A stretch of 64,000 nucleotides of DNA from Selenomonadaceae bacterium (GTDB taxonomy: Bacteria > Vulcanimicrobiota > Xenobia > Xenobiales > JADMJV01). Below the pieces are notes generated by a model, which saw nothing but the letters and a program-made list of their open reading frames with translations, did no database searches and was not told the DNA's origin. The stretch is taken from positions 259,067-323,066 of the forward strand of contig JBBCJA010000013.1 of NCBI GenBank assembly GCA_037189585.1. The letters run 5' to 3'. Within the stretch, counting starts at the first letter, position 1. Each line of letters begins with the position of its first letter. Positions 23,490 to 61,673 of the stretch are shown one piece after another. A program made the translations under genes and the position numbers.

Positions 23490-23561
23490 GCCTCTTCCGG
23501 CGGCAGGCCTCGGCATCACCGGCGACAAAGCAGATCGCCTGCCGAATTTTTCCGGTTGACA

Positions 23562-23587: not shown

Positions 23588-23614
23588 ACCCGGTTTGGGA
23601 GTGTATTTCTATTT

Positions 23615-39190: not shown

Positions 39191-39300
39191 CCCAACCGGT
39201 TCGTATCAGACTGGTCTCCTCCTTGAGACGGGAGGGAGAAGGGGAATCGTCGATCGGGAAAAATCATGCCGCCAGTTATCTGTAGGGAGGATGATGGATC

Positions 39301-39495
39301 GTGCAAGATTTTATCGCAAAGGTCAGTGGGGAACATAACGACTTGGACTGCCCTGTCTGCAAAAAGCGAGAGTGGGCAACTCTCCCGCTACAGGGGAAGC
39401 TTCCCGTCGGTGAGGGGTCACAGTCGCTCGGCGTCGCCGTCAAGGTGTGCACCAACTGTCACTTTGGACGTTTCTTCGTTCAGTTCTCGAAGTAG
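39301..39495 (+). CDS. Candidate small (64 aa) zinc-ribbon protein
   Basis: CPVCKKREW ... CTNCHFG are two CxxC pairs. GTG start 10 nt downstream of a GGGAGG RBS. It overlaps the probable start of the downstream lipoprotein by about 30 nt. Confidence 0.3.
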   Translation: MQDFIAKVSGEHNDLDCPVCKKREWATLPLQGKLPVGEGSQSLGVAVKVCTNCHFGRFFVQFSK

Positions 39496-41239
39496 CCGAA
39501 GAGTTCGGTGGGCGCTCGTCGCCGGTCTGCTGTTTTCGTGCTGCTCCTCCGGCTGCGAGTCTCCCGAACCGTTGGCACGAGAGACTCCGCGGCCCGCTCG
39601 ACCCGGCTCGAGGTTACCCCGGACGCAGCCCGAGCCCGCGGTTCCGATTGTCGTTGCGACGGCGACCGCCGACCCAACTCCGACCGTCGTAGGGAATGCG
39701 TCCGTCGTTGCCGCGCCGACTCGGACTTCCGAGCCGCCGGCTCAACCCGACCCGAGTAGTAGCCTACCTCTGACCCTTCCGGGTCCCACCAACGCGACCA
39801 GTTCTGATGACGGGGAACTCAAGACGCTTCTGGCCGAGGCCAGGAGTTCCAAAATGGCGGCACAATGGCGCAAGGCTGGGGAGCGCGCTCTCAAGTTGGA
39901 CCTTTACGGAGAAGCCGCCAAGGCGTTCCGGCAAGAAGCCAGCATCTACCGGTCCAAAGGGATTCTTCAGGCCGCGCTGGCCCAGGAGGCGCGGGCCGAT
40001 CAGTATTCCACCGAATTCGGATTTTACCTTAGCGGGCGCTCTAGCCTTTCCACCCAACGGACCGCCGAGCGTCTAGAGCCGCCCGCGGGATGTCTGGTGG
40101 GCGCGTTCATCGACCGCGACGACAAGGTGCGAAACTTCATGATGGTCTCGCAGACCCACGGCGATGTCGATGAATTCAACGAGTTGACGGGGAAAAAACA
40201 CGCCAGCTTTTTCATGTATCGCTCCTACGGCGAGCCTTTCCCCAAGCAGTGGGCCGAGTATCTGAAGGCCCGCGGCGCCATTGTCCACCTGGCCTGGGAG
40301 CCGCGCGATCTGGCCAGGGTCAAAGACGACGCCTATCTGAAGAGTTTTGTCGACGCGATGGTCGCCTTGGACCACCCTGTCATGTTGCGCTTCGCCAGTG
40401 AGATGAACGGTGAGTGGACTCCTTATCATGGCGACCCCAAGGCTTACAAAGCAGCCTTTCGCTTAGTCCACCGAGCCACGCGGCGGGCCTCTAAAGTTGC
40501 CATGATGTGGTGTCCCAACACCATCCCTCGCCAGGGACTCGAGGATTACTATCCGGGCGACGACGCGGTGGATTGGGTCGGAGTCAACTTTTACAGCGTT
40601 CCTTTTCTCGATAACGATCGCAACCGCCCGGGAGAACTGATCCATCCCACCGATCACTTGAAAACGGTCTACGGTCTCTACTCCTCTCGTAAGCCGATCG
40701 CCATTGGAGAATGGGCGGCCAGCCACCAGTCGAGCGCGACACCGATACCCCTGGTGGATTTCGCCAAGACCAAGATCTCCCAACTGTACGGCTCACTTCC
40801 CACCCGCTTCCCTCGAGTGAAGATGGTCAACTGGTATAGCTCGAACAATCTTCGTCACGCCAGCCCGTCGCGCCAACTCAACAACTACCAGGTGACCGAG
40901 CCGGAGGAACTGCTCGAGCACTACCGCCGGGCCGTTTCCTCCTCTTACTACCTCGGCGCGGAGGGGAACGGTGAAGGGACGGAGCAGGCCTTCCGACCCG
41001 TGTTCGGACGAGTTTCCGCGAGCACTTCCTCGGAATTGCGCATTGCACTGAAAACCTACGAGCAACGCCCCAAAGTCTATTTCCGGGTCAACGACGAGTT
41101 GAAGTTAGCATCGGACGAGCCTTTGGATTGGCGGCTGTCGGCACGAAATTGGAGAGACGGAAAAAATATCGTCGAGGTACTGGTTTACGATCAAAAGAAT
41201 CGGTTCATCACCAGCGAGAAGCTTATACTTGTCCGTTGA
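39464..41239 (+). CDS. Secreted (lipoprotein-like) protein with Pro/Thr-rich linker, helical region and C-terminal GH26-like (mannanase-family) glycoside-hydrolase domain
   Basis: Signal-like RRVRWALVAGLLFSCCSSGC. The C-terminal block WEPRD...MLRFASEMNGEW...YYPGDDAVDWVGVNFY...IAIGEWA resembles the GH26 catalytic Glu contexts. The start (TTG 39464) is uncertain; the upstream part of the long ORF from 39266 looks non-coding. Confidence 0.55.
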   Translation: MDVSSFSSRSSRRVRWALVAGLLFSCCSSGCESPEPLARETPRPARPGSRLPRTQPEPAVPIVVATATADPTPTVVGNASVVAAPTRTSEPPAQPDPSSSLPLTLPGPTNATSSDDGELKTLLAEARSSKMAAQWRKAGERALKLDLYGEAAKAFRQEASIYRSKGILQAALAQEARADQYSTEFGFYLSGRSSLSTQRTAERLEPPAGCLVGAFIDRDDKVRNFMMVSQTHGDVDEFNELTGKKHASFFMYRSYGEPFPKQWAEYLKARGAIVHLAWEPRDLARVKDDAYLKSFVDAMVALDHPVMLRFASEMNGEWTPYHGDPKAYKAAFRLVHRATRRASKVAMMWCPNTIPRQGLEDYYPGDDAVDWVGVNFYSVPFLDNDRNRPGELIHPTDHLKTVYGLYSSRKPIAIGEWAASHQSSATPIPLVDFAKTKISQLYGSLPTRFPRVKMVNWYSSNNLRHASPSRQLNNYQVTEPEELLEHYRRAVSSSYYLGAEGNGEGTEQAFRPVFGRVSASTSSELRIALKTYEQRPKVYFRVNDELKLASDEPLDWRLSARNWRDGKNIVEVLVYDQKNRFITSEKLILVR

Positions 41240-41282
41240 GAATCCCGAGGAGATCGCTCCTTGGAACCAAAAGAGCCTCCTT

Positions 41283-42440
41283 ATGCAGCCACACGATATC
41301 GACCAGACACAGGCCCATTCCACGGCCGAGCTCGAGCAGATCCGTCCGACGGACTTTTCCCTCGTCTGCCGAGCCAGCGGGGAGCGCCGGCGAGTGGTGG
41401 TGCCACGGACTCACCTTTTTATCTCTTCAAAGTCCTATCTGGTGGTTGACGAGCAAGAGGTTCAGCTGCATACCGAACACCCTGACATCGTGACGGTCAA
41501 CGGCGCGGCTTTCAGCGGAGAGCCTTTGCGACCGGGAGACGAGATCGCGGAGAATGGGAGAGCCTTTGTGTTGGAGAGTTCTCCCGTGGTGGCTTTCTTG
41601 GAAGGTCTGACCCCCCCTCACCAGGGGACCTTCTGGCCCTTAGGGGAGGAGAGCGTCACCGTGGGCCGTCCCGGCAAGCGAGACAATACCATCTCTCTTT
41701 TGGACAAGACGGTCAGTCGCGAACAAGCGACCCTGACATACCAGCAGGGACGATTCGTGCTGATACCCGAGGCCGCTAGCAGCACCAGTACGGTGAACGG
41801 CCGCCCGGTGGAGCAGAAGATGGTTCTGCGCAACGGAGACCTTCTGGCCTTCGGACAACAGATTGTGCGCTTCCAGAGCAATCACGATACCTTCGGTGCG
41901 GGTCAAGGGACGATTTTCTTTTGCGACGTGTGGGACTACTCCAATCTCTTCCACGGCCGGGCCGTGCACGAGGTCGCGCAGCTGATGAGGGAGTTTTACG
42001 AGGCCGCCGGGGAGGTGGTCGAAGGGAACGGAGGACTGGTCCTTCGTTACATCGGGGATGCCCTTTTGGCTGCTTTCTCCGAGGATGGACACGCGGACTC
42101 CGCGGTGGCGGCGGGCTTGGCGCTGCAGGCTCGGCTGGCCGAGCTCAACGCGGACTGGGCGACGCGCGGCATGCCGGTGTTGCAAGTGGGAGTCGGGATC
42201 AACTCGGGTGAATTCGCGGTCGGCCATATGGGCTTCGCTGGCTACATCGAGTTCGGAGCACTTGGGCCTGATGTGAATATGGCGGCTCGGATCGAGAAAC
42301 TGACCCGAGATCACGATTCGAAAGTTCTCTTGGGAGAGTCGACGGCGACTCTCTTGACCCGGGACTACCCCCTGCACTCGCTAGGCAGGCTAAACCTCAA
42401 GGGAGCTCAGGAAGAGATCGAAGTCTTCGCTGTGGTCTAG
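41283..42440 (+). CDS. FHA-domain (x2) class-III adenylate cyclase
   Basis: Canonical FHA VTVGRPGKRDNTISLLDKTVSREQATL...NGRPV. A divergent FHA-like segment lies upstream. The cyclase domain has metal Asp residues in FFCDVWDYS and YIGDALLAAF, and GPDVNMAARIE suggests adenylyl specificity. Confidence 0.8.
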   Translation: MQPHDIDQTQAHSTAELEQIRPTDFSLVCRASGERRRVVVPRTHLFISSKSYLVVDEQEVQLHTEHPDIVTVNGAAFSGEPLRPGDEIAENGRAFVLESSPVVAFLEGLTPPHQGTFWPLGEESVTVGRPGKRDNTISLLDKTVSREQATLTYQQGRFVLIPEAASSTSTVNGRPVEQKMVLRNGDLLAFGQQIVRFQSNHDTFGAGQGTIFFCDVWDYSNLFHGRAVHEVAQLMREFYEAAGEVVEGNGGLVLRYIGDALLAAFSEDGHADSAVAAGLALQARLAELNADWATRGMPVLQVGVGINSGEFAVGHMGFAGYIEFGALGPDVNMAARIEKLTRDHDSKVLLGESTATLLTRDYPLHSLGRLNLKGAQEEIEVFAVV

Positions 42441-44386
42441 GCTAGAGTCGCCCCTCCGAACAGCCGGAGCGCCTCGGTGGGGAGAATCTGCCCCTGGGCG
42501 ACCAGGACCTTGGCGAAGCTCTTGAACGAGAACAGTAGCCCGTGGGAGATGGCAGCCTTGCGGACGGCCTCGGGGCTACGTCCGGCGCGCATCATTTCGG
42601 CCAGGAACGGATTGAGTTTGAGCGACTCGAAAACCGCGACCTTGCCGGAAACCCCGCTTCCTCGACAACTGTCGCAGCCGGCTCCATGGAAGAAGCGGTC
42701 GTCGCGCGAGCCCAGGCCGGAGAGCTCCAGTTGAGAAACGACGGCGGGTGAAGGGCTATACGCCTGACGGCAGTGCGAACAGACTCGGCGCAGTAGCTGC
42801 TGGCCCAGAACCAGGCTGAGATTCTCCACGGTGGAGGCGGGTGCGTCCGGGCGACCCAGCAGCCCGGACAGTGCCGAGATGGGGTCGGTTCCACGCGTGG
42901 TGGTCAGCACGGTCAGTCCGTCCTCGGCGGCCTCTAAAACAGAGTTGAGACTCTCGCAGCCAGGTTCGTCGACCATCAAAACATCAGGTTTTTGCTCCAG
43001 AGCCACCCGCAAGGCCGAGGTGAGGTTCTGTCGCTCGCATTGACCCAGCAGGTCCCCTGGAAGTCGAACTTGGGCTATCTGATCCAGGGTTAGGAGAGGC
43101 TTTGTTTCTAAAGTCAAAGCGTTGACCCGTCCCGTCTCCTGGTCAAGGAGTCGAAGCAGACTATAGAGTGTCGTGCTACGTCCGGAGTGAGAGGAGCCGA
43201 CCACCAGCACGGCGCCCCCCTCGCCACGGATGGCAGCTTCGATCGTCTGTTTGAGAACGTCGACGGGCCACAGAGCGGAGGGCGAAGGGACAGCTTCTCG
43301 CGGGTCGGTGACGCCGACGGCATAACGCGCGCCGCGCAGGGTTTGCAAACGGGACAGGTGGACCTCGCATCGCTGCCCGTCGATCACGACCACTCGGGTC
43401 CGCACCTCGTTGGCCTCGGTGTCGGCCCCAAAGAGCGCCTTCAGCTGTTGCCCGAGCGCATTCTTTTGAGTCGAGTCAAGCTGGCAGTCGAGCGGTTCGA
43501 GTCGTCCTGACGAGCCGGCCGCGAAGAGGGCGACGCCATTGGGTGTCGGCTCCACGATCACCCTTCCCTGGTCACCAGCGTAGGCATGGGCCAGCAGAGT
43601 GTCAAAGGGAGCTCTCACCGGTTCCCCGCCTTCCAGAGTGATGCTCCTTGGAGGAGTGGCCGCGACGCTTGTCGAGGAAGGGGCTACGGTGGGAAGAAAC
43701 CGTTGAGCGAAGTCGGCGAAATCCTCCGCCGTACAGGCCATGGGGTTGATGCTCAGCCCCGGCGCCTGGCGACGCAGGGCGGCAAGTGTTGCCGTGTCGT
43801 GGGGGCGGGTCATGGCTACGGTGACCACGCCGGCTTCGAGACGCAGCGGAATGGCCTTGAGGGTTCGCAACAAGTTGGGAGTGAAAGTTTCGATGAGATC
43901 GGGCTGATTGATGATCTCTTCGGCGCGGGCGAAGTGAAATCCCATGCCGCCGAGCTGCTGGGCCAGACGAGTGGCCAAGTATCGGCTGATCTCGACAGCC
44001 ACCTGAGGCAGCTTCTCCAGGACCGAATCAAAAGAGGCCTTGGCCAGAACAAGGCAGGTTGTCGGCTCGAGGGCGCGCACCGTCGCCGCCCGGGGAGCCT
44101 CGGTCAGAAGTGACATCTCCCCGAAGGATTCCGGGCTGCGCCTCTCCGAGAGGACCTGTTCAACCCCCAGACTCGGCTCCTCTCGCACTACCACCACCGA
44201 GCCTTCGACTAAAATGAACAGTTCCGACCCTGGGTCGCCCTGGCGGACGATGACGGCGTCGGTCTCGAAAGCCATGGCTCGGGTGACTTTGGCTACCGCC
44301 TCGAGCAAGGGTGGAGAGAGTCTTGAGAAGAGGTCCGTCTGGGATAGGAGAGCAACGGCGGCTTGTTGGTCGAACATGGTGGGCAT
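42437..44386 (-). CDS. GspE/PilB-family secretion-ATPase homologue with N-terminal cyclic-nucleotide-binding domain and degenerate catalytic motifs (putative pseudo-ATPase)
   Basis: The cNMP domain (LFSRLSPP...FGEMSLL...RAATVRALEPTTCLVL) is followed by a T2SSE_N-like region and an ATPase core. Walker A is GSSHSGRSTTLYSLL versus the consensus GPTGSGKSTTLY (Lys to Arg). The Asp box is TLETKP versus TIEDP. The His box is GLTVLTTTRGT versus GHLVLSTLHTN, with both His lost. The tetracysteine CSHC...CDSC is retained. Start at M60 (44386, RBS GGGAAG) avoids overlap with the divergent TerB gene. Confidence 0.75.
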   Translation of the reverse strand: MPTMFDQQAAVALLSQTDLFSRLSPPLLEAVAKVTRAMAFETDAVIVRQGDPGSELFILVEGSVVVVREEPSLGVEQVLSERRSPESFGEMSLLTEAPRAATVRALEPTTCLVLAKASFDSVLEKLPQVAVEISRYLATRLAQQLGGMGFHFARAEEIINQPDLIETFTPNLLRTLKAIPLRLEAGVVTVAMTRPHDTATLAALRRQAPGLSINPMACTAEDFADFAQRFLPTVAPSSTSVAATPPRSITLEGGEPVRAPFDTLLAHAYAGDQGRVIVEPTPNGVALFAAGSSGRLEPLDCQLDSTQKNALGQQLKALFGADTEANEVRTRVVVIDGQRCEVHLSRLQTLRGARYAVGVTDPREAVPSPSALWPVDVLKQTIEAAIRGEGGAVLVVGSSHSGRSTTLYSLLRLLDQETGRVNALTLETKPLLTLDQIAQVRLPGDLLGQCERQNLTSALRVALEQKPDVLMVDEPGCESLNSVLEAAEDGLTVLTTTRGTDPISALSGLLGRPDAPASTVENLSLVLGQQLLRRVCSHCRQAYSPSPAVVSQLELSGLGSRDDRFFHGAGCDSCRGSGVSGKVAVFESLKLNPFLAEMMRAGRSPEAVRKAAISHGLLFSFKSFAKVLVAQGQILPTEALRLFGGATLA

Positions 44387-44459
44387 GGATACTTCCCGCG
44401 AAGGAAAGCGACCTTCCGCCAGGAGAATACCGTGGGTCGGAAAATCGTGCCCGGTGAGC

Positions 44460-45023
44460 ATGCAGAATCCATTTCGCGACGCCATGGTCTCTATTTCCAT
44501 TGCCGCCGCTTGGGCCGACGGGGGAGTGGAGGACTTCGAGAAGCAATCGCTGGACAGAATCATGGTGAGCCTGGGCTACAGTCGGGGCGAGATCATGACT
44601 CGCATCAGTCAGGCCTTGGAAGGACCGGACCTCGATCCCATCGAGCTTCCAGTCGAACCAAGTCTGTGCGTCCAGACGATGCGTTACGCTCTGGCGGTGA
44701 CCTTGTCCGACGGGGCTCTCTCGGCCGCGGAAGTGAACTTTTTGGCCAAGCTCGCTGAACATCTGGGACTTGACGCCAAAACTTTGGAGACGCTGCGAGC
44801 CGAGGCGGAGGGGATGGTGTCGGAGCGTCGCGCCGAGGGGCTCGTCAAACCGATCGAAAGATTGGAGTCTCTGCCCCCGGAAGCCAGAGTCAAGCTGGCC
44901 GACGCCGAGCTTGACCAGAAACCCTCCCCCAGGCATGGACCTGGCGAAGCTGTTGCTGGAGGAATCCTGGAGCCCAAAGTCCTCTACGAGGGTGAGGGCT
45001 TCGGTGGCCAGTTGGAGCTGTAG
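44460..45023 (+). CDS. TerB-like (tellurite-resistance TerB / DjlA N-terminal fold) domain protein
   Basis: ISIAAAWADGGVEDFEKQSLDRIMVSLGY and a second repeat, LAVTLSDGALSAAEVNFLAKLAEHLGL. GGTGAG RBS. Confidence 0.55.
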   Translation: MQNPFRDAMVSISIAAAWADGGVEDFEKQSLDRIMVSLGYSRGEIMTRISQALEGPDLDPIELPVEPSLCVQTMRYALAVTLSDGALSAAEVNFLAKLAEHLGLDAKTLETLRAEAEGMVSERRAEGLVKPIERLESLPPEARVKLADAELDQKPSPRHGPGEAVAGGILEPKVLYEGEGFGGQLEL

Positions 45024-45025
45024 GA

Positions 45026-46363
45026 TTGAAGCCCGGGGTGGGGAGCCAGAGGTGTCTGCTCGGGTTGGGCTTGGCCGGCTGGTTGTTTTCTGCGGGCTCT
45101 TCCCTGGCCCAAGAGCAGGCTCCAGTGGTGCGAGCGGAGTTTGTCGTCGATCCTGGAAATACCGAAGTTTGGCGCTCCTCCGGGGAGGGAGTGAGCAACT
45201 ATGTCGGCCCGGCCAACAAGATGCTGTCTTTAGACCTCGACGCGGCGGAAATGGCCGGAAATCGCGATATCGTGGTGGAGTTCAAAGTGCCTCTCTGGTT
45301 CTCCACCTGGACCAGTCCCGCCGAGTATGTCTCTCCCGGCCGCTTACGCGAAACCCGTCGATTCCCGGAGCGTGATGTCCATCGCCTGGAGCTCGGCGGC
45401 TGGCGGCGTTTCCAAGCCTGGACACTGGCCCATCCGAGCCTGGCGCTAGGCGCCCCGGCGGGGCTCTTCGTCACCCTGGTGGCGGGCTGGCTATGGAGAC
45501 GTCGACCTCGACCGAAGCCCCATGGAGAATTGACCGATGGATATTCATTGAGAGAAAGGCTCGGCGCGGGAGCGATGGGTGAGGTTTTCGCCGCGACCGA
45601 TTCCGATGGGATGGAGTGCGCGTTGAAGTTTCTCCGCTCCGAGCTGACCGCGAATCCGAGGGCGGCCGAGAGGTTCAACCGAGAGATCGCCGCCAGCGTC
45701 TCTTTAAGCCATCCCAACTTGCTGAAGGTGTTCGGCTACGGATTCGCCCGTGACGGACGGCTCTACCTATCCACCGAGCTTTTGAAGGGCCGAACTCTTA
45801 AGGAGGAGCTCAAGAAAAATGATCGCTCGCCGGAGCTGGCTCTCGACGTGGTCGAGGAGGTCGGAGCGGCTCTAGCTTATCTGCAGGGACGCGGAGTGGT
45901 CCATCGCGACGTCAAGCCCGAGAATATCTTTGTTCGGGAGAGCGGCGGACTGGTGTTGATGGACCTTGGAATCGCGCAGACCGCGAACACGGAGTCGATC
46001 ACCGTCGCGGGTCAGGCCATGGGCTCTCCGCTTTACATGGCACCCGAGCAGGTTCAGGGGAAACCCGGTCCGGCTACCGACCAGTACGCTTTGGGTCTTG
46101 TTCTGTACGAGATTTTGACCGGACGACGTCCCTTCCGGGCCACCGACGTGGCCGCCCTGGTCCATCAGCATATCCATGAAACTCCGCCCCCGCCGCGCCA
46201 AATCGAACCGCGTATTCCCGAGGTCGTGGAGAGGGCTCTACTGCGCATGTTGACCAAGCGCCCAGAGGAGCGCTTCGCCTCCGTGGAGGAGGCGCGCCGG
46301 GCGGTGTCCGAGGGACTGGCGGGCCAGCGCTGGCGAAGATCTAGAGAGACTCGGACATTTTGA
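45026..46363 (+). CDS. Receptor-type Ser/Thr protein kinase (signal peptide, ectodomain, TM, Hanks kinase)
   Basis: GAMGEVFAA...ALK (subdomains I and II), HRDVKPENIF, DLGIA and APE motifs. A single TM segment (LFVTLVAGWLW) precedes the kinase. Confidence 0.85.
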   Translation: MKPGVGSQRCLLGLGLAGWLFSAGSSLAQEQAPVVRAEFVVDPGNTEVWRSSGEGVSNYVGPANKMLSLDLDAAEMAGNRDIVVEFKVPLWFSTWTSPAEYVSPGRLRETRRFPERDVHRLELGGWRRFQAWTLAHPSLALGAPAGLFVTLVAGWLWRRRPRPKPHGELTDGYSLRERLGAGAMGEVFAATDSDGMECALKFLRSELTANPRAAERFNREIAASVSLSHPNLLKVFGYGFARDGRLYLSTELLKGRTLKEELKKNDRSPELALDVVEEVGAALAYLQGRGVVHRDVKPENIFVRESGGLVLMDLGIAQTANTESITVAGQAMGSPLYMAPEQVQGKPGPATDQYALGLVLYEILTGRRPFRATDVAALVHQHIHETPPPPRQIEPRIPEVVERALLRMLTKRPEERFASVEEARRAVSEGLAGQRWRRSRETRTF

Positions 46364-48044
46364 GGATCGGCAGCAGGCACCCGATGGAGAAAAAGCCGAC
46401 GCAGATTCCCAGGAAGGCCATGAAAAGGGGCTCGACCAGACTCATCAGCGCTTCTATGCGATATTCGAGTTCGGCGTCGACGATACGCGCCACACTCTCC
46501 ATCATCCCCGTCACGTCGCCGCTCTGTTGACCCGCCTCGACAGCTTCGATCACCAGCGGCGGCAGTATGTCTCCAACTTCTAGCGACTCGCGCAGGGTAC
46601 TGCCGTCGATCAGGGCCTGTTTCATTCTGGGTCCGGCCAGTGTGGCCTTGCGTGAGCCTGTGGCCTCGGCGGCCATGAGAAAACACTGGGGAGCGGTCAG
46701 CCCGACATCATAGGTCATGATGAAGATTCTTAGGAAACGAAGCGAGACCGCGGTCTGGATCAGGTTTCCGACACCCGGTAGCGCCCAGGCCATCGGCTCC
46801 AGATTCACCAACCTTTCACGGACTTTTCCGCTACGGAGCCCCAGGAATCCGAGGACCGTCAGAGACGCCGCAGTGATGAGGAAGGCCGGAGAAGAGAGGG
46901 AACGCGAGAACCAGAGAATCCCCTTGGTGATAGCCGGGGGGTCGCCACTGAGCTCCACAACCTGGGTCAAGACGTCGGCCAAAACGAAAGGCGGGAGTAG
47001 AACCACCGCCAGAAGTGTGAGCGAGGCGATGGTGAGCGGATAGAAGAGATGACTCTGCAAGGTTTGGCGCAGCTTCCATCGATGCTCCTCGTCAGCCGCC
47101 AAACGGTGAAGAACGGCCACCAGCTTACCCGAACGCATGCCGATCTCGACCAGCTTGACCGCGATCTCGCTAAAAAGAGCGGGCTCTTTGTAGGCTGCCC
47201 GGTGAAGCGGCTGACCCGCTAATAGGTCTTGAGAAATACGTCGACAGGCTTCAGCTTGTTCGGGACTTTCCGACTCTCGAGCGAGAAAGTCGAAGACTCC
47301 GAACATAGGCAGGCCAGCCCCCAGCATGGTGGTGAGGGAGCGGTAGAAGGTCACTCGTTGGCGCTGGAGGTTGCCGGACCAGGATTGGATCAAAGATCGC
47401 CGAGGCACCGAGGTGGCGACGGATTCGACCGCCACGGGAGATTTTTTGACCGGCGGGGGCGATGGAGGAGTGGGGGGAGGTTTTAAGGGAGGTTTTGAGG
47501 CGTCGAGCTCCGGAGCCGTGACGGAGGGTGAGGGTGCCTCTAGCTTGGCTACCCAGGCGGGAACCGGTGGATCGTCGAGACTTTCCGGCTTAGCCCAGGC
47601 GGGTCGTTCGGGAGCTGAGGGCGCTGGAGGTGTCTTCTCGATGGGTTTCGGGCCTGGCGGCTTGGCCAATTTGAGCTCCACCGGAGGGAGGGCCGGGGGT
47701 TGTTTCGCAGCTTTCTCGACGGCTTCAGCGTGGGAAAGCATCTCAGGAAGCCCGACTTCTCCGGTGGGCGATTCCTCTTTCTTGGGGCGACTTCGTTGCC
47801 AGGCCCGCATCATTTCATCGCTACTGACTTCAAATGTCTCCGAGGTCTCACGGGCGACCCAGCCACCGCTGGAGGTAAAGTGGTCCGACCCGGCTGGACG
47901 GCTCAGGGGCTGCGAGTCCGATGTGATCAATCCGGAAAGCCAACCTGTATAAGTCGACTCCGTGTCCATCTCTGGACCTGGAGTGGCCAAGACGTCATCG
48001 CCCCACTGCACCGGCTTGGGTTCAGCAGACTTATCTTCGGCCAT
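46341..48044 (-). CDS. GspF/PilC-like inner-membrane platform protein (two T2SSF repeats) with an approximately 320-aa proline-rich N-terminal extension
   Basis: Two T2SSF-domain repeats (RVTFYRSLTTMLGAGLP...; ...GPRMKQALIDGSTLRESL...) with 3 TM segments. N-terminal low-complexity PPxP-rich region. Start placed at MAEDKS (48044); the first about 97 codons of the long ORF look non-coding. Confidence 0.7.
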   Translation of the reverse strand: MAEDKSAEPKPVQWGDDVLATPGPEMDTESTYTGWLSGLITSDSQPLSRPAGSDHFTSSGGWVARETSETFEVSSDEMMRAWQRSRPKKEESPTGEVGLPEMLSHAEAVEKAAKQPPALPPVELKLAKPPGPKPIEKTPPAPSAPERPAWAKPESLDDPPVPAWVAKLEAPSPSVTAPELDASKPPLKPPPTPPSPPPVKKSPVAVESVATSVPRRSLIQSWSGNLQRQRVTFYRSLTTMLGAGLPMFGVFDFLARESESPEQAEACRRISQDLLAGQPLHRAAYKEPALFSEIAVKLVEIGMRSGKLVAVLHRLAADEEHRWKLRQTLQSHLFYPLTIASLTLLAVVLLPPFVLADVLTQVVELSGDPPAITKGILWFSRSLSSPAFLITAASLTVLGFLGLRSGKVRERLVNLEPMAWALPGVGNLIQTAVSLRFLRIFIMTYDVGLTAPQCFLMAAEATGSRKATLAGPRMKQALIDGSTLRESLEVGDILPPLVIEAVEAGQQSGDVTGMMESVARIVDAELEYRIEALMSLVEPLFMAFLGICVGFFSIGCLLPILKMSESL

Positions 48045-48297
48045 TTCCCACTCGAGTCGACATAAAATTGGAGCTATCTTAGCAGCTTTGCTCGGCCTGC
48101 GAAATTGGCCTTGGAGCTTGAGAAAGTCTCGTTCCACGCCGAAGCGAGGAGATCGGAAAATAATCGGAAAAACTTCGATTACATTGTTCACTGACCTCCT
48201 GTGTCGAAAGGTCGCCGCGGACTGTTTTAGACAGTGTATGGACGACCAGGTGCGAGGAAATTTGATCAAAAATTTAACGTTAACCCGAGGTCGTCCG

Positions 48298-49818
48298 TTA
48301 GTTGGGAATGATGACGCCGCAGGTCGCGTCGTCAAGATCCCCTATGTCGGCTAGCGCGGTTTCGATGGCTTGAGCCGCTTCGGTGATTGAGGGGAATCGT
48401 GTTTCCGGCCTTTTGGCCATCAGACGTTGAACCACCACTTCTAGCAGTGGACTGGCATCGGGCACCTCGTGAAAGATAGACGGGACGGGGGCGGTCAGGT
48501 GTTGGGTTATGACCTCGATGGGGTCGCCCTCGGGATAGGGGCGGTCCCCGGTCAGCATCTCGAAAAGGATCACTCCCACGGCGTATTGATCGCTTTCGGG
48601 ACGAACCTCTCCCTTGGCCTGTTCCGGCGCCATGTAGTGAGGGCTTCCCACAGCCATTCCGGTTCGAGTGATGGCTTCGAACTCTAGACCTCGAGCGATC
48701 CCGAGATCGACGAGTTTGACTCCAGTGCGGTCCAAAAAGATGTTCGATGGCTTGACGTCGCGATGAACCATACCCTTTTTATGGATGTAAGCTAGAGCTT
48801 TGCACAAGGGAAGCAAAATGTTCGCGATCTTCTCTCTGGGCGGTTGAATATCGTCGTCGAGCTCCTCCGAGAGGGTACGACCTTCCAACAACTCCATCAC
48901 CAGGTAGGTCTCGCCGTCGGGACCCACGCCGGTATCATACATCCTGACGAGGTTAGGATGGTTTAGCTTGGAGCAGATCTCGATCTCTCGAAGGAATCGT
49001 TTCTTGGTGTCACGGTCTTCCAGCAGTTCGGGACGCACGACTTTGATGGCCACCTCTCGACCAGGCGCCTTGGGCGAGGTGCCGCGGTAGATGATCGCCA
49101 TTCCCCCCTCGGCGATCTTCTCTTTTATGACGTAAGGCGGCCCGGTCGGCGGGATGGGGTCTGCTCGGCCGGAAGTCGTTTGGGGCAACCGGGTCGAGGG
49201 CGGCGTCTGCTGCTGGCGACCTCGTCGCCCGAGGATAAATCCACCGGCGCCCACCCCCAGAACCAGAAGGGCGAGCCCCGGAGCAAGCCACGATCCGGAT
49301 CCGACAGGCTCAAGCCTGTAGGTCCCCTGGCTAGGAAGGCGCCGACTGCCTCGGAGTTCAGGCGCGGTGAGTGAGATAACTTTAGGCACGTAGCCGTCGG
49401 CGCTAAGGGTGAATTCAAAAGACTTGTCTCCCGAAGCGGGAAGCTCGAGAGCTAGCGGTTGAGCGGCGCTCTGCTCCACCACTCCGTCGACCTTGACGAT
49501 CGCGTTGGGAGGATCGACATGGACTTTCACTATGACCTGCTCGGCATCGCCGGGCAGTCTCATCAGAGCAAAGACAATAGCGGTAAGCATCCATGGCGCG
49601 CGCACGCGGCCTACTTTGCTTTTTTCGACCTGGCTCCTGGAATCAAACGGATACAGTGGTGGAAACGACCGACTCCTACCCCAGCAGAGAATCCAGGGCA
49701 TTCCGAAAGTCGTTTGAGTAGAGGGGTCCCACCGCGTTCCCTCTTTCGGCCCGCCGCGAAGCGCTTTGGAAGGTCGAGGTGCGGTCCGGGGAGGAGGAGG
49801 AGGTGTTGCCAAGTCCAC
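48298..49818 (-). CDS. Receptor-type Ser/Thr protein kinase with PEGA-like ectodomain
   Basis: Kinase motifs GGMAIIYRG...AIK, HRDVKPSNIF, DLGIARG and SPHYMAPE. An ectodomain VIVKVHVDPPNAIVKVDGV...GYVPKV (PEGA-like) is followed by one TM segment. A second ORF in another frame (49676..50083) overlaps the 5' end, so a frameshift or alternative N-terminus is possible. Confidence 0.8.
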   Translation of the reverse strand: MDLATPPPPPRTAPRPSKALRGGPKEGTRWDPSTQTTFGMPWILCWGRSRSFPPLYPFDSRSQVEKSKVGRVRAPWMLTAIVFALMRLPGDAEQVIVKVHVDPPNAIVKVDGVVEQSAAQPLALELPASGDKSFEFTLSADGYVPKVISLTAPELRGSRRLPSQGTYRLEPVGSGSWLAPGLALLVLGVGAGGFILGRRGRQQQTPPSTRLPQTTSGRADPIPPTGPPYVIKEKIAEGGMAIIYRGTSPKAPGREVAIKVVRPELLEDRDTKKRFLREIEICSKLNHPNLVRMYDTGVGPDGETYLVMELLEGRTLSEELDDDIQPPREKIANILLPLCKALAYIHKKGMVHRDVKPSNIFLDRTGVKLVDLGIARGLEFEAITRTGMAVGSPHYMAPEQAKGEVRPESDQYAVGVILFEMLTGDRPYPEGDPIEVITQHLTAPVPSIFHEVPDASPLLEVVVQRLMAKRPETRFPSITEAAQAIETALADIGDLDDATCGVIIPN

Positions 49819-50251
49819 GAGTTTCTAAGGAGAAGACCACTCCGTCATGAAAACTACCCCCGTTGGACGGAACCGCGATCGAGGGCTGTGCCGGGCTTGC
49901 CACGGGGCGAGCGACCGGGCGGGTCGTCGGAGCGATAGCGGTGACGGGGCGGGCCTGTCCGTTGCTGTAGGTGGCGCCGAAAGCCGAGCGGGAATCGTGA
50001 CGCTCGGGCTGCCCGCCGTAAAACAGCGAGGTCGCGTATCGGTCGGCTCCTTGGAAGTGTCTCTCTCGTTGTTGGGCTGCCACGGCTAGCTTTCTCCTTA
50101 GGTCCCCTAGGGGTGTGTTCTTGCCCTCAAGATACAGCCTCGAGGTTTTCTCATGGTTGAGCGAGCGGGGGTAAATGTTAACTTTTTGTGACGAATATGA
50201 CCATCTAGTCGTCGGTGTCAGTTTTTGAACGACTTCTTCTAAGAAACAACA

Positions 50252-50278
50252 AAGCCCCGCGGCGAGGCGGGGCTTTGG
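50252..50278. terminator. Rho-independent terminator downstream of the acyl-CoA ligase gene
   Basis: aaagccccgc-ggcgag-gcggggcttt stem with flanking T-rich and A-rich tracts. Confidence 0.5.
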
Positions 50279-50300
50279 AGATGAGTCGAGGTGGAATGGC

Positions 50301-51971
50301 TTACTGCCAGGAAACCTTTTCCTTGCTCTCGGCCCACTTGTCCATCTCGGGTCCGTATTTATCCTCCACGGTGCGCCGTTTGAGCTTCATACTGGGAGTG
50401 AGAAACTCATTCTCGATGGTCCACTCTTCTTTGATAATGATCAAACTCGAGAGGCGTTCCCATTCCTCGACGGAGCGATTAACCTTGGCTAAGAGCTCCT
50501 TGAGTTGACTTTCGATTTCGGCTTTGTTGGCCTTACCGGCGGCTAGGTCCTTACGAAGACCCTCGGCCAGCATCACGAAGGCAAACGCCATGGCGTAGCC
50601 GGAACCGGTCACGCAGGACATCTCGACGTAAGGATGAGCGTTGAGCATATTCTCGATGGGGGCCGGCGAAATGTACTTGCCCTTACTGGTTTTGAACAGC
50701 TCCTTGACGCGGCCTGTAATCTTGAGGCGTCCGGCGTCGTCGCGTTCACCCCGGTCGCCGGTTTTAAGCCATCCGTCCTCAGTGAGGGTCTCCTGAGTGG
50801 CTTCCGGCTGCTTGAAGTAGCCCTTCATCAATCCGGGGGTGTGGAGTTGAATCTCCCCCTCGTCAGAGATACGGACCTGCACTCCGGGCATCGGGTGACC
50901 CACGTAGCCGACACGGGATTTTCCTGGGAGCGAGACGTGAGAGCAAACGAACTCCTCGGTCATTGCGTAACCTTCGAGAAGCTCTAGACCCAGGCGTCGA
51001 TACCACTCGATCAACTGAGGCGGAATGGGAGCCGAGCCCGAAAGCGCGAAGCGGGTCTGATCCAGACCAAGCCCGGCGAGGATTTTATTCTTCACGATGC
51101 CCGAGATGATGGGAATCTTAAGAAGAAGGGACAGCTTCTTCTCGGGCATTTTGGCCGAGACACCCTGCTGAAACTTCAGCCAGAGACGGGGAACGGAGTG
51201 GAAGATGGTCGGACGGGCCCGTTTGACATCCTCCACGAATGTATCCAAAGAGTCGGCGAAGAACAACTGGCAGCCGGCAAGACAGGTCGCCACCTCCACC
51301 GCGGCACGCTCGAAGACGTGAGCTAGGGGGAGATAAGAGATAAAGCGGTCGTCAGTGGTGAGACTGAAGATTTTGATGGCGCCTTTGGGACCGGCCACAG
51401 TGCTTGCGAAGGTATGTTCTACCCCCTTGGGCTGACCGGTCGATCCGGAGGTGTAGATCAAAAGAGCGGTGTCGTCCTTGTCGCGAGTCGGGCTTCCCTC
51501 GATCGGCTCGGTCGACTTGATGATGTCGTCCCACTTGGTGTAGTCGGTTTTAGGAGACAGAGGATAGCTGATGCACGGCATCCCCTCGGGGACCATGGTT
51601 TTGGCGTCGAAAACGTCGAGTTTTCCGACAAACATCAGCTTGGACTCACTGTGCTCGAGGATGTACTGAATGGTATCCGGACTCGAGGTGGGGTACAGTG
51701 CGACGGAGACGTATCCGGCCATCCAGATGGCGAGATCGCTCATGATGAAATGGGCACAGTTTTTCGACAGGATGGCGATGCGCGACCCCTGCGGGTACCC
51801 TTGGGCTTTGAGGTGAGCCGCCATGCGGCGGGCTTCGTCGAGAGTCTGAGCCCAGGTGAATTCCCGTAGGGCGCCGCCCCCCATCGGCTGTGTCATGTAG
51901 ACACGCTGGGGGCTCTCTTTTTCCCAGCGATAGACGTTTTCTAGAACGAGATCCTTGGCTTCGATCGACAT
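50301..51971 (-). CDS. Long-chain-fatty-acid--CoA ligase (AMP-binding superfamily)
   Basis: AMP-binding motifs LIYTSGSTGQPKGV and TGDRGERDDAGRLKITGRVKE. Start at MSIEAK with GGAG 8 nt upstream. Confidence 0.85.
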   Translation of the reverse strand: MSIEAKDLVLENVYRWEKESPQRVYMTQPMGGGALREFTWAQTLDEARRMAAHLKAQGYPQGSRIAILSKNCAHFIMSDLAIWMAGYVSVALYPTSSPDTIQYILEHSESKLMFVGKLDVFDAKTMVPEGMPCISYPLSPKTDYTKWDDIIKSTEPIEGSPTRDKDDTALLIYTSGSTGQPKGVEHTFASTVAGPKGAIKIFSLTTDDRFISYLPLAHVFERAAVEVATCLAGCQLFFADSLDTFVEDVKRARPTIFHSVPRLWLKFQQGVSAKMPEKKLSLLLKIPIISGIVKNKILAGLGLDQTRFALSGSAPIPPQLIEWYRRLGLELLEGYAMTEEFVCSHVSLPGKSRVGYVGHPMPGVQVRISDEGEIQLHTPGLMKGYFKQPEATQETLTEDGWLKTGDRGERDDAGRLKITGRVKELFKTSKGKYISPAPIENMLNAHPYVEMSCVTGSGYAMAFAFVMLAEGLRKDLAAGKANKAEIESQLKELLAKVNRSVEEWERLSSLIIIKEEWTIENEFLTPSMKLKRRTVEDKYGPEMDKWAESKEKVSWQ

Positions 51972-52094
51972 ACGGTAACTCCAATCTCGGGGATTTTGAG
52001 GCGGACAAATGACGACCACGACCCCCTTGAATTCCATCCGCCGCTTTCGGATGAAGCAGGAAAGACCCTCTAAAAAGAAGCAAAGATCGTCGAA

Positions 52095-53471
52095 CTATAG
52101 ACCCATTGAAGCGCGATAGTAGAGCTTCATCAACTCCGGGTCGGGATCGAGGTCGTCGGACTTGAGCGCTTTGACGGTCGCTTCGTAGACTTCCACCGCG
52201 CGTTCCGGCTTGGCCATTTTCAGGTAGGCCTCCATTAAAAGGCCGGCCGCATCCTCGTTGGTGGGGTCCACTTCCAGCAGTTTTCGTCCGGAACTCTCCA
52301 CTGCTTCGAATTCGTTGTGTTCCAGCATCGTCCGACCCGAAGCCAGCACCGTTTCGGTGAAACAGATCTCGAGTTTGGACCGGGCCACGTCGGCCCAGTC
52401 TTCATAACAGGTTCGCAGAAACGGACCACGATAGAGATCGAGCAGCCTTCGTAGGGCCGCGGCCGAGGTGAGAGGTTTGCGAGGTTCGGTCATTTTCATG
52501 ACCTCGGTGTAGTCATGTTGGCCGAGGCGTTCGGGATTGAGTTGCAGGGTCGAGGGTGTCCGCAGTACCAGGGATTCGAAGGCCGCGTCGTCGAGAGCCA
52601 GGGAATCGCGCAGCTGGAGCAGAGTGTAGCTGAGATTTTTTCGGCCACGGGTTGCCGCGACCCCGGGCCAGAACTCCTCCAACAAGGACTCCACGGCCAG
52701 AGGTTCGCCCCACTGCAAAGCCAGTCGAGCCAGCAGCCAGCGACTCTTCTCGTTACGAACGTCTTGCCCCAGATTAGCGTCGCCACCTAAGGAGACCCAA
52801 AAGGTGCCCAAGGTCCTAATAGAGATGAGCGACTCGGTGCTAGAGGCTTCAGCGGGGACGGAGAAACGGAAGAAAAGTTGGCCGACTCCGATCAGATCGC
52901 CATGGTGAAGCCGCTTGGTGGCTCCGGGCGCCAGCGCCTCCCCGTTGACCGTGGTGGCACTACCGGCCGACTCGCTCATCAACGAAACCTGGCCGTGACG
53001 ATCGGGCAGAAAGGTCGCATGGGCTCGAGATATGGTCGGATGCTCGAGCTCGATATGGTTGAGTCGCTTGCCCCGACGACCCAACAGAGTCTGTTGACCC
53101 TTAAGGTGCCAAACCCGACCGGTGAAAGGAGCGTCAACCCCCTCCAGCGTTCCCACCGGAGGCTGACGTACGTCCAGCAGCCAGATGTTCGCTCCGTCGA
53201 GAATCGCGCTCTCTCCCACGTGCAGCGGACGGCTTTCGCCGTTCTCGCTGTTGAAAAGGACCACGCTGTCGCCTTTGAGTCTGGCAGACCATGTCGAGCC
53301 CGCGGGAAAAGCCGTGGCCGCTTCCTTGGCGAAGCTGATCTCCTCGGAGATGAAAGGGAAACGGTACTCCCGCTGACCGTCGAGAACCAGCTGCAGTTCG
53401 AGATGTGGATGGGCCAGAGTGACCGACTGGGCCAACACGTTCTGAGTGGGATCGCTAGACTGTTCCGTCAT
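52095..53471 (-). CDS. FHA-domain plus SARP/BTAD (OmpR-like wHTH with bacterial transcriptional activation domain) regulator, a reverse EmbR architecture
   Basis: N-terminal FHA (TLLGRRGKRLNHIELEHPTISRAHATF...NGEAL). C-terminal winged helix (LGTFWVSLGGDANLG...RWLLARLAL) and BTAD helices (LDLYRGPFL...EAYLKMAKPERAVEVYE). Confidence 0.7.
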   Translation of the reverse strand: MTEQSSDPTQNVLAQSVTLAHPHLELQLVLDGQREYRFPFISEEISFAKEAATAFPAGSTWSARLKGDSVVLFNSENGESRPLHVGESAILDGANIWLLDVRQPPVGTLEGVDAPFTGRVWHLKGQQTLLGRRGKRLNHIELEHPTISRAHATFLPDRHGQVSLMSESAGSATTVNGEALAPGATKRLHHGDLIGVGQLFFRFSVPAEASSTESLISIRTLGTFWVSLGGDANLGQDVRNEKSRWLLARLALQWGEPLAVESLLEEFWPGVAATRGRKNLSYTLLQLRDSLALDDAAFESLVLRTPSTLQLNPERLGQHDYTEVMKMTEPRKPLTSAAALRRLLDLYRGPFLRTCYEDWADVARSKLEICFTETVLASGRTMLEHNEFEAVESSGRKLLEVDPTNEDAAGLLMEAYLKMAKPERAVEVYEATVKALKSDDLDPDPELMKLYYRASMGL

Positions 53472-55673: not shown

Positions 55674-55771
55674 ACTTGTTCGAAGCCCGCACGGCGAAGC
55701 CTCCAGGGAAAGGTGAAGGCCTACGGTACTTTATGCCTAGACGATTGACCCTACTTGGGGATAATAGAGCT

Positions 55772-59591: not shown

Positions 59592-60080
59592 CTAGGCTTG
59601 CCGATGTAGCTTCCGCTTCAGCCATAGCACCGCTTGCTGACGCTGCTCCGAGAGCCTCGTGTCGCCTTGAGCCCGACTACTGCAATCGTCATTGTCGCCT
59701 GACACTTTGCTCTCCTTGCTCTTTCTCTTTGCCCTAAAGCACTCGCTTCGCATCGCCCTGGGATGAGTGCGGCGATGTTCTTTCAGGAGCTCTAGCGGCC
59801 TAACCCGCGTGTAGCTCTCGGTGGTGGTCGAGCTCTCGTGTCCCAAGAGGGCTTGGATGTAAGCCACGTTCGCGCCGGACTCCAAGAGATGGGTCGCGAA
59901 GGAATGACGCTTATGCCGAGCTCGGCATAACCGACACACGCATGCCTCTCAGCTGGACCGAAGCCGCTACCGTCCCGGTCGGTTCACGTCCAGAAAATCC
60001 TTGGGCACAGGCAGCTCGGCTCCACTCAGGTTTACTGCACGGTCACGAAGGAAGAACTTGCTAGATCTGCCAGTGACCTG
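59592..60080 (-). pseudogene. Frameshifted tyrosine-recombinase (phage-type integrase) C-terminal remnant
   Basis: [36 protein letters not shown] covers catalytic box II, but upstream integrase-like segments ([10 protein letters not shown]...) lie in other frames with stops. Confidence 0.55.
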
Positions 60081-60637
60081 GAATAGGGCCATTTTTCGAA
60101 CCGTTCTGGATCGTTACCTAGTGACGTGGTGGCCATCACTGGCGTTAGTGCGTAACGCCCAGTTCCGGGATCGTCTGTGGCCATGTCTCGGCGACTCCTC
60201 GCAGATCCCCCGTAGATCTGGCGATCCTGCGGGGGCCTAACGGCCAGGATCCAAAGACCCTACTTGGGGGGACATGGTGCCGTTTATCGGTATCCGCTCG
60301 TCGCCGCTTCGCTTGGGCTAACGCCCAAGCTCATGGGCCGGGGCTCAAGGGACCGCGAGAGATCCGCGTTCACGATCTCGCATCCAACGCGGGGCCTAAG
60401 GCCGGACTCCAACGATCAGCGATGAGCGGCGACAATTGCGGGCGGGCTCATCGCCCCGGCCAACGCCAGCCATCGCGCTTTGTTCCAAAGCAGAGAAGGT
60501 TACACTCAAAGCTCTCGCTCGAGACCGGCAGCAACCGAGGGTCAGAGCAAACGACAGACTTTGGGGGGCCGGGTGACTCGCGCGGGAGAGGTTCTTGGGC
60601 TCAAGGGGATTGATGGGCAGCTTTCCCCAGCGAATCA

Positions 60638-60833
60638 CCCGGCGCGGAGCCTAAAGGCGGAACTTTGAGCAACGAACAGGCTCAGAGCTTTGGCCGGGCC
60701 CGCGCCGGAAGACGGTGCCCCGCCTTTGCCAGTCCCCTGTCGGGGACTGAAAGCCGGGGCGTAAGGCTCTTCTTCTGTTCTTGGTTCGCAGAAAAGAAAA
60801 AAGCCCCGACCGACCTGGGGAGATCGATCAGGG
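60638..60833. repeat. Copy 1 of an approximately 195-bp structured direct repeat
   Basis: About 90% identical to 61432..61626. It contains the hairpin ccagtcccc-tgtc-ggggactg and a GC-stem/A-rich 3' end. Confidence 0.6.
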
Positions 60834-60923
60834 GAGTGACATGGTCTCGGCAGTTGAATACTCAGATAGACGAATAGCGCCGAGTCACTTCCTTCACTTG
60901 TCTTGAACACGTAATATACGAAT

Positions 60924-61283: not shown

Positions 61284-61431
61284 GTTGGAGTCACCTTCCA
61301 TGCCTCCGGGGAGGAACATCAAGGTTATGAAAACTTGGGTTGATAGTGGAGTCCAATCGTGTCTTATCACATGGGGCCGGTGGGTTATCAATAGCATCAA
61401 TGCAGGCGCTTGAACAGCTTTTCGTCGGCTG

Positions 61432-61626: not shown

Positions 61627-61673
61627 CTTGCAGTAAGCGGTTCCTGAGTGGTGTTCTTTCGGGGCGTTAGACG

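Follow-up and report, generated by a model that had tools for sequence, protein, structure and literature searches.

Type IV filament machines, such as the type IVa pilus (PilB/PilC), the type II secretion system (GspE/GspF) and the MSHA pilus (MshE), contain a motor of the PilB/GspE family, and PilB/GspE docks on the platform protein PilC/GspF. The PilB-family motors are controlled by cyclic di-GMP (c-di-GMP) and by partner proteins, while cyclic AMP (cAMP), to our knowledge, acts on pili only through transcription factors in the known systems. Control of nanomachines by kinases and FHA proteins is known as well, namely from the type VI secretion system (T6SS) and the archaellum (the Arn network), and the kinase PknH phosphorylates EmbR, an FHA-bearing regulator of the SARP family. 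Here, we analysed a 64-kb stretch of DNA (hereafter, the window) from contig JBBCJA010000013.1 of a bacterium of the Xenobia lineage. A gene cluster at positions 39266–53471 of the window encodes a GspF/PilC-like platform protein together with a PilB/GspE-like protein carrying a cyclic-nucleotide-binding (cNMP) domain, named pGspE here, as well as a TerB-domain protein, two receptor Ser/Thr kinases (STK1 and STK2), and two FHA proteins, one a nucleotide cyclase (FHA-cyclase) and the other a SARP-type regulator (FHA-SARP).

We propose, with a probability of about 0.5, that the cluster belongs to a divergent type IV filament system (pilus or pseudopilus) that is controlled by kinases and FHA proteins as well as by a cyclic nucleotide. 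In this system, the pilins and the working motor would be encoded elsewhere and the dead motor pGspE would act as a regulator. The cluster is the junction of two conserved, lineage-restricted modules of the Eremiobacterota/Xenobia type and not one co-conserved unit. Module A consists of TerB and pGspE, usually with a class III cyclase alongside. Module B consists of the GspF-like platform, STK1, STK2 and FHA-SARP, to which deeper relatives add two prepilins and a large membrane protein.

A 2024 review on the regulation of PilB covers c-di-GMP, PilZ/FimX and cAMP acting via Vfr, with neither a cNMP-binding domain on PilB nor FHA among its subjects (PMC11656802). The literature searched contained no description of a cNMP-domain PilB protein (cNMP-PilB), of a TerB–GspE pairing, or of degenerate (pseudo-ATPase) PilB paralogs. 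A matching description of the whole architecture was likewise absent from it, in agreement with the initial annotation of the stretch, which had recognized no described system in the cluster.

The genes were annotated using a listing of open reading frames (ORFs) and Pfam and NCBIfam scans. The family scans covered the ORFs of at least 180 aa, that is, most, though not all, of the window. The loci of relatives were read as gene neighbourhoods, labelled L001–L006, L008, L011 and L091–L094. The loci L004, L008 and L093 form the window clade together with the window itself, and L008, from an 89% relative, served as the reference for the ratios of nonsynonymous to synonymous substitutions (dN/dS). 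These ratios amounted to 0.04–0.16 for the signalling and machinery genes, indicating purifying selection.

Catalytic motifs and fold of pGspE

The pGspE protein (649 aa; 42437–44386, reverse strand) matches the Pfam families cNMP_binding, MshEN and T2SSE. Its motifs were compared using an alignment with MshE, canonical relatives and the Thermus PilF. Unlike the motors of type IV filament machines, pGspE has lost the Walker A Lys (GSSHSGRST vs. GxxGxGK[ST], with Lys replaced by Arg and the fourth Gly also gone), the Asp of the Asp box (TLETKP, in which the Glu is kept), the Arg fingers (EANEVRTR in place of PQDGR in the N2 domain, N2D) and both His residues of the His box (DGLTVLTTTRG vs. TGH...H). 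The alignment upheld the initial description of this protein as a GspE/PilB homologue with ablated catalytic motifs. The Walker A Lys, the Arg fingers and the His box couple ATP hydrolysis in PilB, PilT and GspE. Judging from its motifs, pGspE is probably a hydrolysis-dead motor acting as a regulator.

Meanwhile, the fold of the family is retained. The AlphaFold2 (AF2) model of pGspE, built with 12 family members, had a predicted local distance difference test (pLDDT) score of 82.6, and its top Foldseek matches were PilF, PilB and GspE (5oiu, 5tsh, 5zfr and 4ksr), with E values down to 1e-28 and TM-scores up to 0.80. The parts kept include the N1-like domain, N2D, the RecA-like C-terminal domain, the Asp-Glu pair of Walker B and the Zn tetracysteine (C536, C539, C571 and C574, all invariant). 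The dN/dS of pGspE is 0.12; therefore, the gene is not decaying.

The cNMP domain of pGspE occupies the place of the c-di-GMP-binding N-terminal helices of MshE, so that the N-terminal c-di-GMP module of the filament motors is replaced. The best matches of this domain in the PDB are to PKA RI-alpha. Its phosphate-binding cassette FGEMSLLTEAPRAATVRA (FGE...PRAATV), which is of the PKA/CRP type, is intact, and the cassette residues G89, E90, R99, A101 and T102 are invariant in the family (signature G-E...R-[ST/A]-A-[TS]). The tandem c-di-GMP motif of MshE, RLGxx(L/V/I)(L/V/I)...Q, was found by a regular-expression search in none of the nine cNMP-PilB proteins, while the MshE controls P0020 and P0023 contained it. 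The arrangement thus resembles the c-di-GMP control of MshE/PilB through MshEN in that a receptor for a second-messenger nucleotide stands at the N-terminus of a PilB-family protein. It differs in the kind of receptor (a cNMP domain of the PKA/CRP type), in the absence of the RLGxxLL motifs and in the catalytic degeneracy of the recipient.

When 1.84 billion representatives were searched exhaustively with HMMER, cNMP-PilB proved to be a sizeable family that forms a graded series with two tiers (about 100 of the top 150 representatives were full length). This overturned the view of the architecture as near-unique, which came from 16 proteins seen in a word-indexed search. The canonical tier keeps PQDGR, GPTGSGKTT, EDP, GE.RD and TGH..H and is sister to the degenerate tier, which comprises about 20 or more clusters at 50% identity, including the pGspE of the window. 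In the degenerate tier, R, L, V, A or Q takes the place of the Walker A Lys, and the Arg fingers and the His box are gone in all members; the cNMP cassette and the Zn site are kept in all of them. Those family members that are labelled come from metagenome-assembled genomes (MAGs) of Candidatus Eremiobacteraeota and Armatimonadota. The sole close species-representative genome found to contain a relative is a Candidatus Xenobia MAG, in a genome scan that was swamped by generic cNMP-domain matches, and a scan of metagenomes with the pattern SGRSTTLY yielded a single short locus.

The Gly/Ser/Thr scaffold of the P-loop, the Asp-box Glu and the Walker B Asp-Glu pair are invariant or nearly so across the pGspE family. 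Together with the retained fold, Zn site and N1-like domain, and with canonical cNMP-PilB ATPases as the sister tier, this would suit a working, if unusual, assembly ATPase, activated directly by a cyclic nucleotide and powering a pseudopilus on the adjacent platform. The replaced Walker A Lys and the loss of both His-box His residues and of the PQDGR Arg fingers make this very unlikely in our opinion, the more so as the decay goes further in the sister clusters, where the Lys has given way to L, V, A or Q.

The platform protein and the prepilins of deeper relatives

The platform protein (46341–48044, reverse strand) contains two Pfam T2SSF domains and three transmembrane segments (337–355, 383–401 and 540–558), as do the platforms of the type IV filament machines. 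However, its score against TIGR02120 (GspF), covering 50–401 of the 401 positions, is 174 bits, far under the equivalog cut-off of 424. It also differs from these machines in its disordered N-terminal tail rich in Pro, Ser and Thr (18% Pro, 18% Ser+Thr). Counted from the conserved start MAEDK, this extension is about 225 aa long (the database entry P0121 has 567 aa) and thus shorter than the 320 aa assigned to it initially. The GspF-like family is rare, with orthologs of 29–84% identity, and the dN/dS of the platform gene is 0.11.

Two prepilin genes (of about 118 and 197 aa, with the motifs GFTLVE, GFSLVE, GLTIPE, GLSIVE and GLSLIE) flank the platform gene in L091, L092 and L094. The same loci carry a gene for a homologous 541–565-aa membrane protein beside the platform (L091:11341–14019, L092:11693–14304 and L094:12123–14690, prepilin genes included). 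This protein has an N-terminal transmembrane segment and only a faint Pfam match, to DUF7305. An ATPase was absent within 10 kb of the platform in all three loci. As the orthologs of the platform stand beside prepilins in three deeper loci, as in type IV filament machines, the platform belongs to a filament system.

The picture in the window itself is different. Prepilins were sought with a six-frame regular expression for class III signal peptides (G/[FLM]TLxE followed by a hydrophobic helix), and no such motif was present in any frame of the 64 kb save for a false match inside a glycosyltransferase. Secretin, prepilin peptidase, PilMNO and GspCLM families were absent from the window ORFs scanned. 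Here the locus departs from the known filament machines, as the initial annotation had pointed out. Homologs of the relatives' pilins, of their 555–565-aa protein and of a 209-aa secreted protein, which L008 encodes additionally between STK2 and the platform gene (L008:5443–6072), were sought in the window and none were found. A 563-aa ORF (55676–57367, forward strand), which adjoins the arginine decarboxylase gene and has no match in Pfam, NCBIfam or PADLOC, was rejected as a counterpart of the 555–565-aa protein, as the two show no similarity.

Since prepilin motifs are also absent from L004, L008 and L093, whereas the deeper clade has them beside the platform, the pilins could have been lost in the window clade, leaving the platform, pGspE and TerB as a membrane signalling hub or a minimal exporter. 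The loss of adjacent pilins coincides with the juxtaposition to TerB–pGspE in this clade, the sole ATPase-like partner nearby is catalytically degenerate, and all parts are under purifying selection. However, pilin genes are commonly unlinked from the platform and ATPase genes, the visible part of this genome amounts to 64 kb, and the platform keeps both T2SSF domains and three transmembrane segments, as working machines do; moreover, we know of no precedent for a GspF protein working without pilins. We consider such a loss of the filament unlikely, and the prepilins beside the platform orthologs mean that a filament-less device, as suggested initially, is not demonstrable. A filament machine turned into a signal device appears to us quite unlikely. 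In such a device, a cyclic nucleotide, perhaps one other than cAMP, would gate a dead PilB hexamer, which would sit with TerB on a platform whose disordered tail is phosphorylated by the two kinases; the complex would integrate both kinds of signal and no filament would form.

The FHA-cyclase and the TerB protein of module A

In the FHA-cyclase (41283–42440, forward strand; the ORF opens at 41229 and the conserved start is MQPHD), a beta domain at the N-terminus is followed by one FHA domain and then by a class III nucleotide cyclase domain (Pfam FHA at 143–209 and Guanylate_cyc at 228–400). Two FHA domains had been assigned to it initially, and one alone is detectable. The N-terminal domain of about 100 aa has no Pfam match at E ≤ 1. 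The paralogous beta domain of FHA-SARP, which is all-beta and of unassigned fold in the AF2 model, aligned to the FHA profile with an hhalign probability of 0.7%. The signature of the detectable FHA domain reads GR, SREQ (with His replaced by Gln) and NG.

The best match of the FHA-cyclase in the PDB is the adenylyl cyclase bPAC. The motifs FFCD, YIGD and VNMAAR align to D156, D200, N274 and R278 of bPAC, so the pair of metal-binding Asp residues, the Asn and the Arg are intact. Meanwhile, the adenine-specifying Lys is replaced by an Arg (R273), which is invariant in four cyclases, including one of the CHASE2 type, and the Thr/Asp position is occupied by Gly. The Arg-for-Lys replacement was seen in all cyclases adjoining pGspE (LRYIGD or IRFIGD; window 41229–42440, L003:11968–13737 and L004:4856–6028). 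In EaPycC, the cytidylate cyclase of Pycsar, an Arg at the same position (R142) is the residue that confers specificity for CTP (PMC11224242).

The cyclase gene is convergent with pGspE in three lineages. Its sensor is of the FHA type in two of them (the window/L008 and L004) and of the CHASE2 type in the third (L003). This recurrence with two types of sensor backs the previously suggested link from the cyclase to the cNMP domain. A further arrangement was observed in L003 (5657–11905), where two paralogous cNMP-PilB pseudo-ATPases lie 2.4 kb apart, together with a CRP-family regulator, a GAF protein, TerB and the CHASE2-cyclase. A class III cyclase and a cNMP receptor tied to pilus control are also found in the Pil-Chp/CyaB/Vfr system of Pseudomonas. 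In contrast to that system, where cAMP acts via a transcription factor, the receptor domain is here part of a PilB-like protein, and an FHA (or CHASE2) sensor drives the cyclase.

The pairing of a class III-type cyclase with a cNMP-domain protein, and the Arg at the specificity position as in EaPycC, also recall Pycsar. An anti-phage pair of this kind would produce a cyclic (possibly pyrimidine) mononucleotide upon infection, and the PilB-like protein would be the effector activated by it. In the PADLOC scan, the cyclase matched PycC (1.6e-15) and pGspE matched the cNMP domain of PycTIR (5e-18). However, the generic Pfam domains reach the same scores, which leaves no signal specific to the Pycsar families, and the likeness stays at the level of generic domains. 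Toxic domains, whether TIR, transmembrane or other, are missing from the effector, the locus belongs to the syntenic core genome across relatives at 53–89% identity and not to a variable island, and the companions (CRP, GAF, CHASE2 and kinases) are typical of housekeeping signalling. We regard a defence function of this kind as highly improbable.

The TerB gene (about 44460–45023, forward strand) encodes a TerB/DUF533-like soluble protein. The Pfam TerB match of 31 bits bears out the initial assignment, and the dN/dS is 0.11. The gene is divergent from pGspE and adjoins it in all five degenerate-clade loci (L001–L004 and L008), and it is not beside the canonical cNMP-PilB genes in L005, L006 and L011. 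An anti-phage TerY-P system was set aside, as no vWA or PP2C genes are present.

The receptor kinases and FHA-SARP of module B

Both kinases, STK1 (45026–46363, forward strand; Pkinase 1.5e-41) and its paralog STK2 (48298–49590, reverse strand; Pkinase 9.6e-46), are type I receptor Ser/Thr kinases of the Hanks type. Each has a signal peptide, an ectodomain of about 90–105 aa, one transmembrane segment and a C-terminal kinase domain with intact HRD, DLG and APE motifs; in STK1, the ectodomain has about 105 aa and the transmembrane segment spans 138–156. The Pkinase matches confirmed the two receptor kinases of the initial annotation. Its PEGA-like ectodomains did not hold, since PEGA (PF08308) gave no match at E ≤ 1 in either of them.

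FHA-SARP (52095–53471, reverse strand) was identified by its Pfam FHA and BTAD domains. In the AF2 model, built with 25 orthologs (pLDDT 82.6), the beta and FHA domains are followed by a winged helix-turn-helix (216–311, at pLDDT above 90) and then the BTAD helices. The winged helix was seen in this model only, the Pfam family Trans_reg_C not being detected in the protein. The top Foldseek matches were AfsR (8k60 and 8hvr) and EmbR (2fez), and the FHA domains of DgcB, GarA and OdhI were also matched. Because of these fold matches and the modelled order of domains, FHA-SARP is, on its predicted structure, an EmbR-like regulator with a permuted domain order. The architecture initially assigned to it was thus borne out. 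Its FHA signature reads GR, SRAH and NG. About 38 orthologs were found, including those near the GspF-like genes in L091, L092 and L094. FHA-SARP and the FHA-cyclase have in common a paralogous sensor module made up of the beta domain and the FHA domain (35% identity over 134 aa, E = 3e-17).

A Hanks-type receptor kinase beside an FHA-bearing SARP is reminiscent of PknH–EmbR and AfsK–AfsR. Unlike in those pairs, the beta and FHA domains are N-terminal here (the FHA domain of EmbR is C-terminal), there are two type I kinases, and the target of the regulator is probably the filament/platform operon and not cell-wall or antibiotic genes. Receptor Ser/Thr kinases and FHA proteins are also encoded together with a membrane machine in the T6SS (PpkA/PppA/Fha1) and in the archaeal Arn network, the latter being a case of a type IV filament. 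The locus differs from both in that the cluster shows no PP2C phosphatase, the FHA domains are parts of a cyclase and a SARP and not stand-alone scaffolds, and the platform is that of a bacterial type IV filament-like machine.

A candidate target of FHA-SARP lies upstream of the platform gene. An exact direct repeat TTTTCCGAT-TA-TTTTCCGAT (48152–48171, reverse strand), with a 9-nt unit and an 11-nt period, is located about 110–125 nt before the ATG of the platform gene. A block of about 70 nt around it (within 48100–48200) is 100% identical in L008, while dS at nearby synonymous sites is about 0.5; the block is thus more conserved than the flanking coding DNA. SARPs bind repeats of 11-nt period, and by this analogy the repeat is possibly an FHA-SARP binding site or else a conserved leader, which we offer as a lead only. 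The motif is not enriched above chance in the window, and no Rfam family matched the leader.

Linkage of the modules and the proposed mechanism

Module B is represented in L008, L091 and L092 by the platform, the orthologs of both kinases and FHA-SARP. The 8-kb contig of L093, too short to show FHA-SARP, contains the platform and both kinases, and L094 contains the platform, FHA-SARP and one kinase, which scores closest to STK2. The orthologs of STK1 are 40–42% identical in L091/L092 and 57% in L004, and those of STK2 38–39% in L091/L092, 36% in L094 and 60% in L093. This co-conservation of both kinases, FHA-SARP and the GspF-like gene down to about 40–50% identity is in favour of the kinase-to-FHA link suggested initially. 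The modules abut each other only in the window clade, namely in those of its loci whose contigs reach far enough (window, L008 and L004). At the junction, a gap of 3 nt lies between TerB and STK1 in the window, while in L004 the two genes have an overlap of 17 nt, which indicates one operon conserved at 53% protein identity.

In the mechanism that we propose for the divergent filament system, the small ectodomains of the kinases would perceive a cue from the envelope or from outside the cell, and the kinases would write phosphothreonine marks, for which either their juxtamembrane regions or the platform tail, rich in Ser, Thr and Pro, are candidate substrates. These marks would recruit two effectors with one paralogous sensor module. 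FHA-SARP would give the transcriptional output, possibly at the 11-nt-periodic repeat upstream of the platform gene, and the FHA-cyclase would give the second-messenger output. The cyclic nucleotide would then bind to the dead PilB paralog pGspE, which, together with TerB, may dock on the platform or compete for it. In this way, pGspE would not power the assembly of the filament but gate it, as a brake or licensing factor that depends on the nucleotide. The genes for the pilins, the prepilin peptidase, the working ATPase and any secretin would lie elsewhere in the genome. Vulcanimicrobium demonstrates that Eremiobacterota can be diderm and piliated (PMC9758169), which makes a full machine encoded elsewhere plausible.

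A number of observations weigh against this proposal. TerB and pGspE occur without a GspF gene within 10 kb in L001–L003, and the GspF/kinase/FHA-SARP set occurs without GspE or TerB within 10 kb in L091, L092 and L094; in these loci, the modules are more than 10 kb apart or on other contigs. The genes are thus partly scattered in homologous genomes, which the initial annotation had named as evidence contrary to its self-contained module. The loci in which the modules adjoin are related and have common housekeeping synteny (GT4 and PFK), so their adjacency could be inherited gene order. An acyl-CoA ligase gene and then a strong terminator interrupt the cluster, the GH26-like gene at its other end is reduced to remnants in L008, and the sample of neighbourhoods is small (12 look-ups). 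The messenger may not be cAMP, as had been assumed, because the cyclase has an Arg in place of the adenine-specifying Lys and a Gly in place of the Thr/Asp, which makes its product uncertain. The docking of pGspE on the platform is reasoned from the pairing of PilB with PilC, and pGspE may still bind ATP or hydrolyse it slowly, given the conservation of Walker A, Walker B and the Asp-box Glu. The candidate SARP repeat was found in the window and L008 alone and is not clearly conserved in L091–L094. Finally, no pilin, peptidase or active ATPase is demonstrable for the genome, of which 64 kb are visible.

The separation of the modules raises the question of whether there is a single system at all. 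The cluster could instead hold independent signalling genes of a kinase- and FHA-rich genome, brought together by inherited adjacency, with linkage only in the pairs TerB–pGspE and GspF–kinases. The housekeeping flanks (GT4, PFK, SOD and Arg decarboxylase) are equally syntenic in L004 and L008, and the unrelated ligase, the terminator and the decayed GH26-like gene would also be expected in such a case. However, the operon structure of TerB–STK1 is conserved across 53% identity, a paralogous sensor module is found both in module A (FHA-cyclase) and in module B (FHA-SARP), PilB-like proteins are known to partner physically with PilC-like ones, and kinases, though unrelated ones, recur near module A in L001 and L002. 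We consider an origin by mere adjacency possible, but doubtful.

Other genes of the cluster and the window

The genes listed in the initial annotation proved to be real in the Pfam/NCBIfam scans; an AMP-binding acyl-CoA ligase gene within the cluster (50301–52037) and a conserved 135-aa ORF had been overlooked. This ORF, orf135 (49676–50083, reverse strand), is 79% identical in L008 with a dN/dS of 0.22 and has no family match. A terminator (50277–50250) and a promoter-like site are located upstream of it, so orf135 is probably the first gene of an orf135–STK2–GspF unit.

At the other end of the cluster, a gene (39266–41239, forward strand) encodes a GH26-like secreted protein with a Pro/Thr-rich linker, which is a probable lipoprotein (RRVRWALVAGLLFSCC). 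Its Pfam GH26 match is weak (25.9 bits vs. the cut-off of 20.2), in line with the secreted GH26-like enzyme described initially. The stop of this gene overlaps the start of the cyclase ORF. Orthologs of 62–70% identity are present in L004, where the copy also matches GH26, and in L093, where it is near the platform. In the closest relative, L008, only remnants were seen (L008:13153–13900); therefore, the gene is no essential part of the system.

The flanks of the window are occupied by housekeeping genes, namely those for GT4, PFK, SOD, a carboxyltransferase, arginine decarboxylase and cytochrome oxidase. Upstream of the cytochrome oxidase genes, heme A synthase (COX15/CtaA) appears to be fused to heme O synthase (UbiA/CtaB) in one 682-aa ORF (23399–25447, forward strand). 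At a distance of 30 kb from the cluster, a gene (8579–9394, forward strand) encodes a protein with a pair of PilZ domains, a type of c-di-GMP receptor, and a 350-aa protein (12558–13610, forward strand) has a weak anthrax-lethal-factor-like (ATLF) domain. A mobile-element patch (59592–63725) contains an integrase remnant (59592–59939, reverse strand) and an IS66-family element with accessory ORFs (61674–62446) and a transposase (62364–63725).

Implications

If the proposal of a regulated filament system is true, the PilB clade that carries a cNMP domain, has lost catalysis and is paired with TerB would constitute a new class of pilus/secretion regulator and a natural example of a motor turned sensor. 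The kinase pair and FHA-SARP beside the platform would extend the control by threonine phosphorylation, known from the T6SS and the archaellum, to bacterial type IV filaments. The locus also offers defined parts on which the biology of the Eremiobacterota/Xenobia, a group with hardly any cultured members, can be tested.

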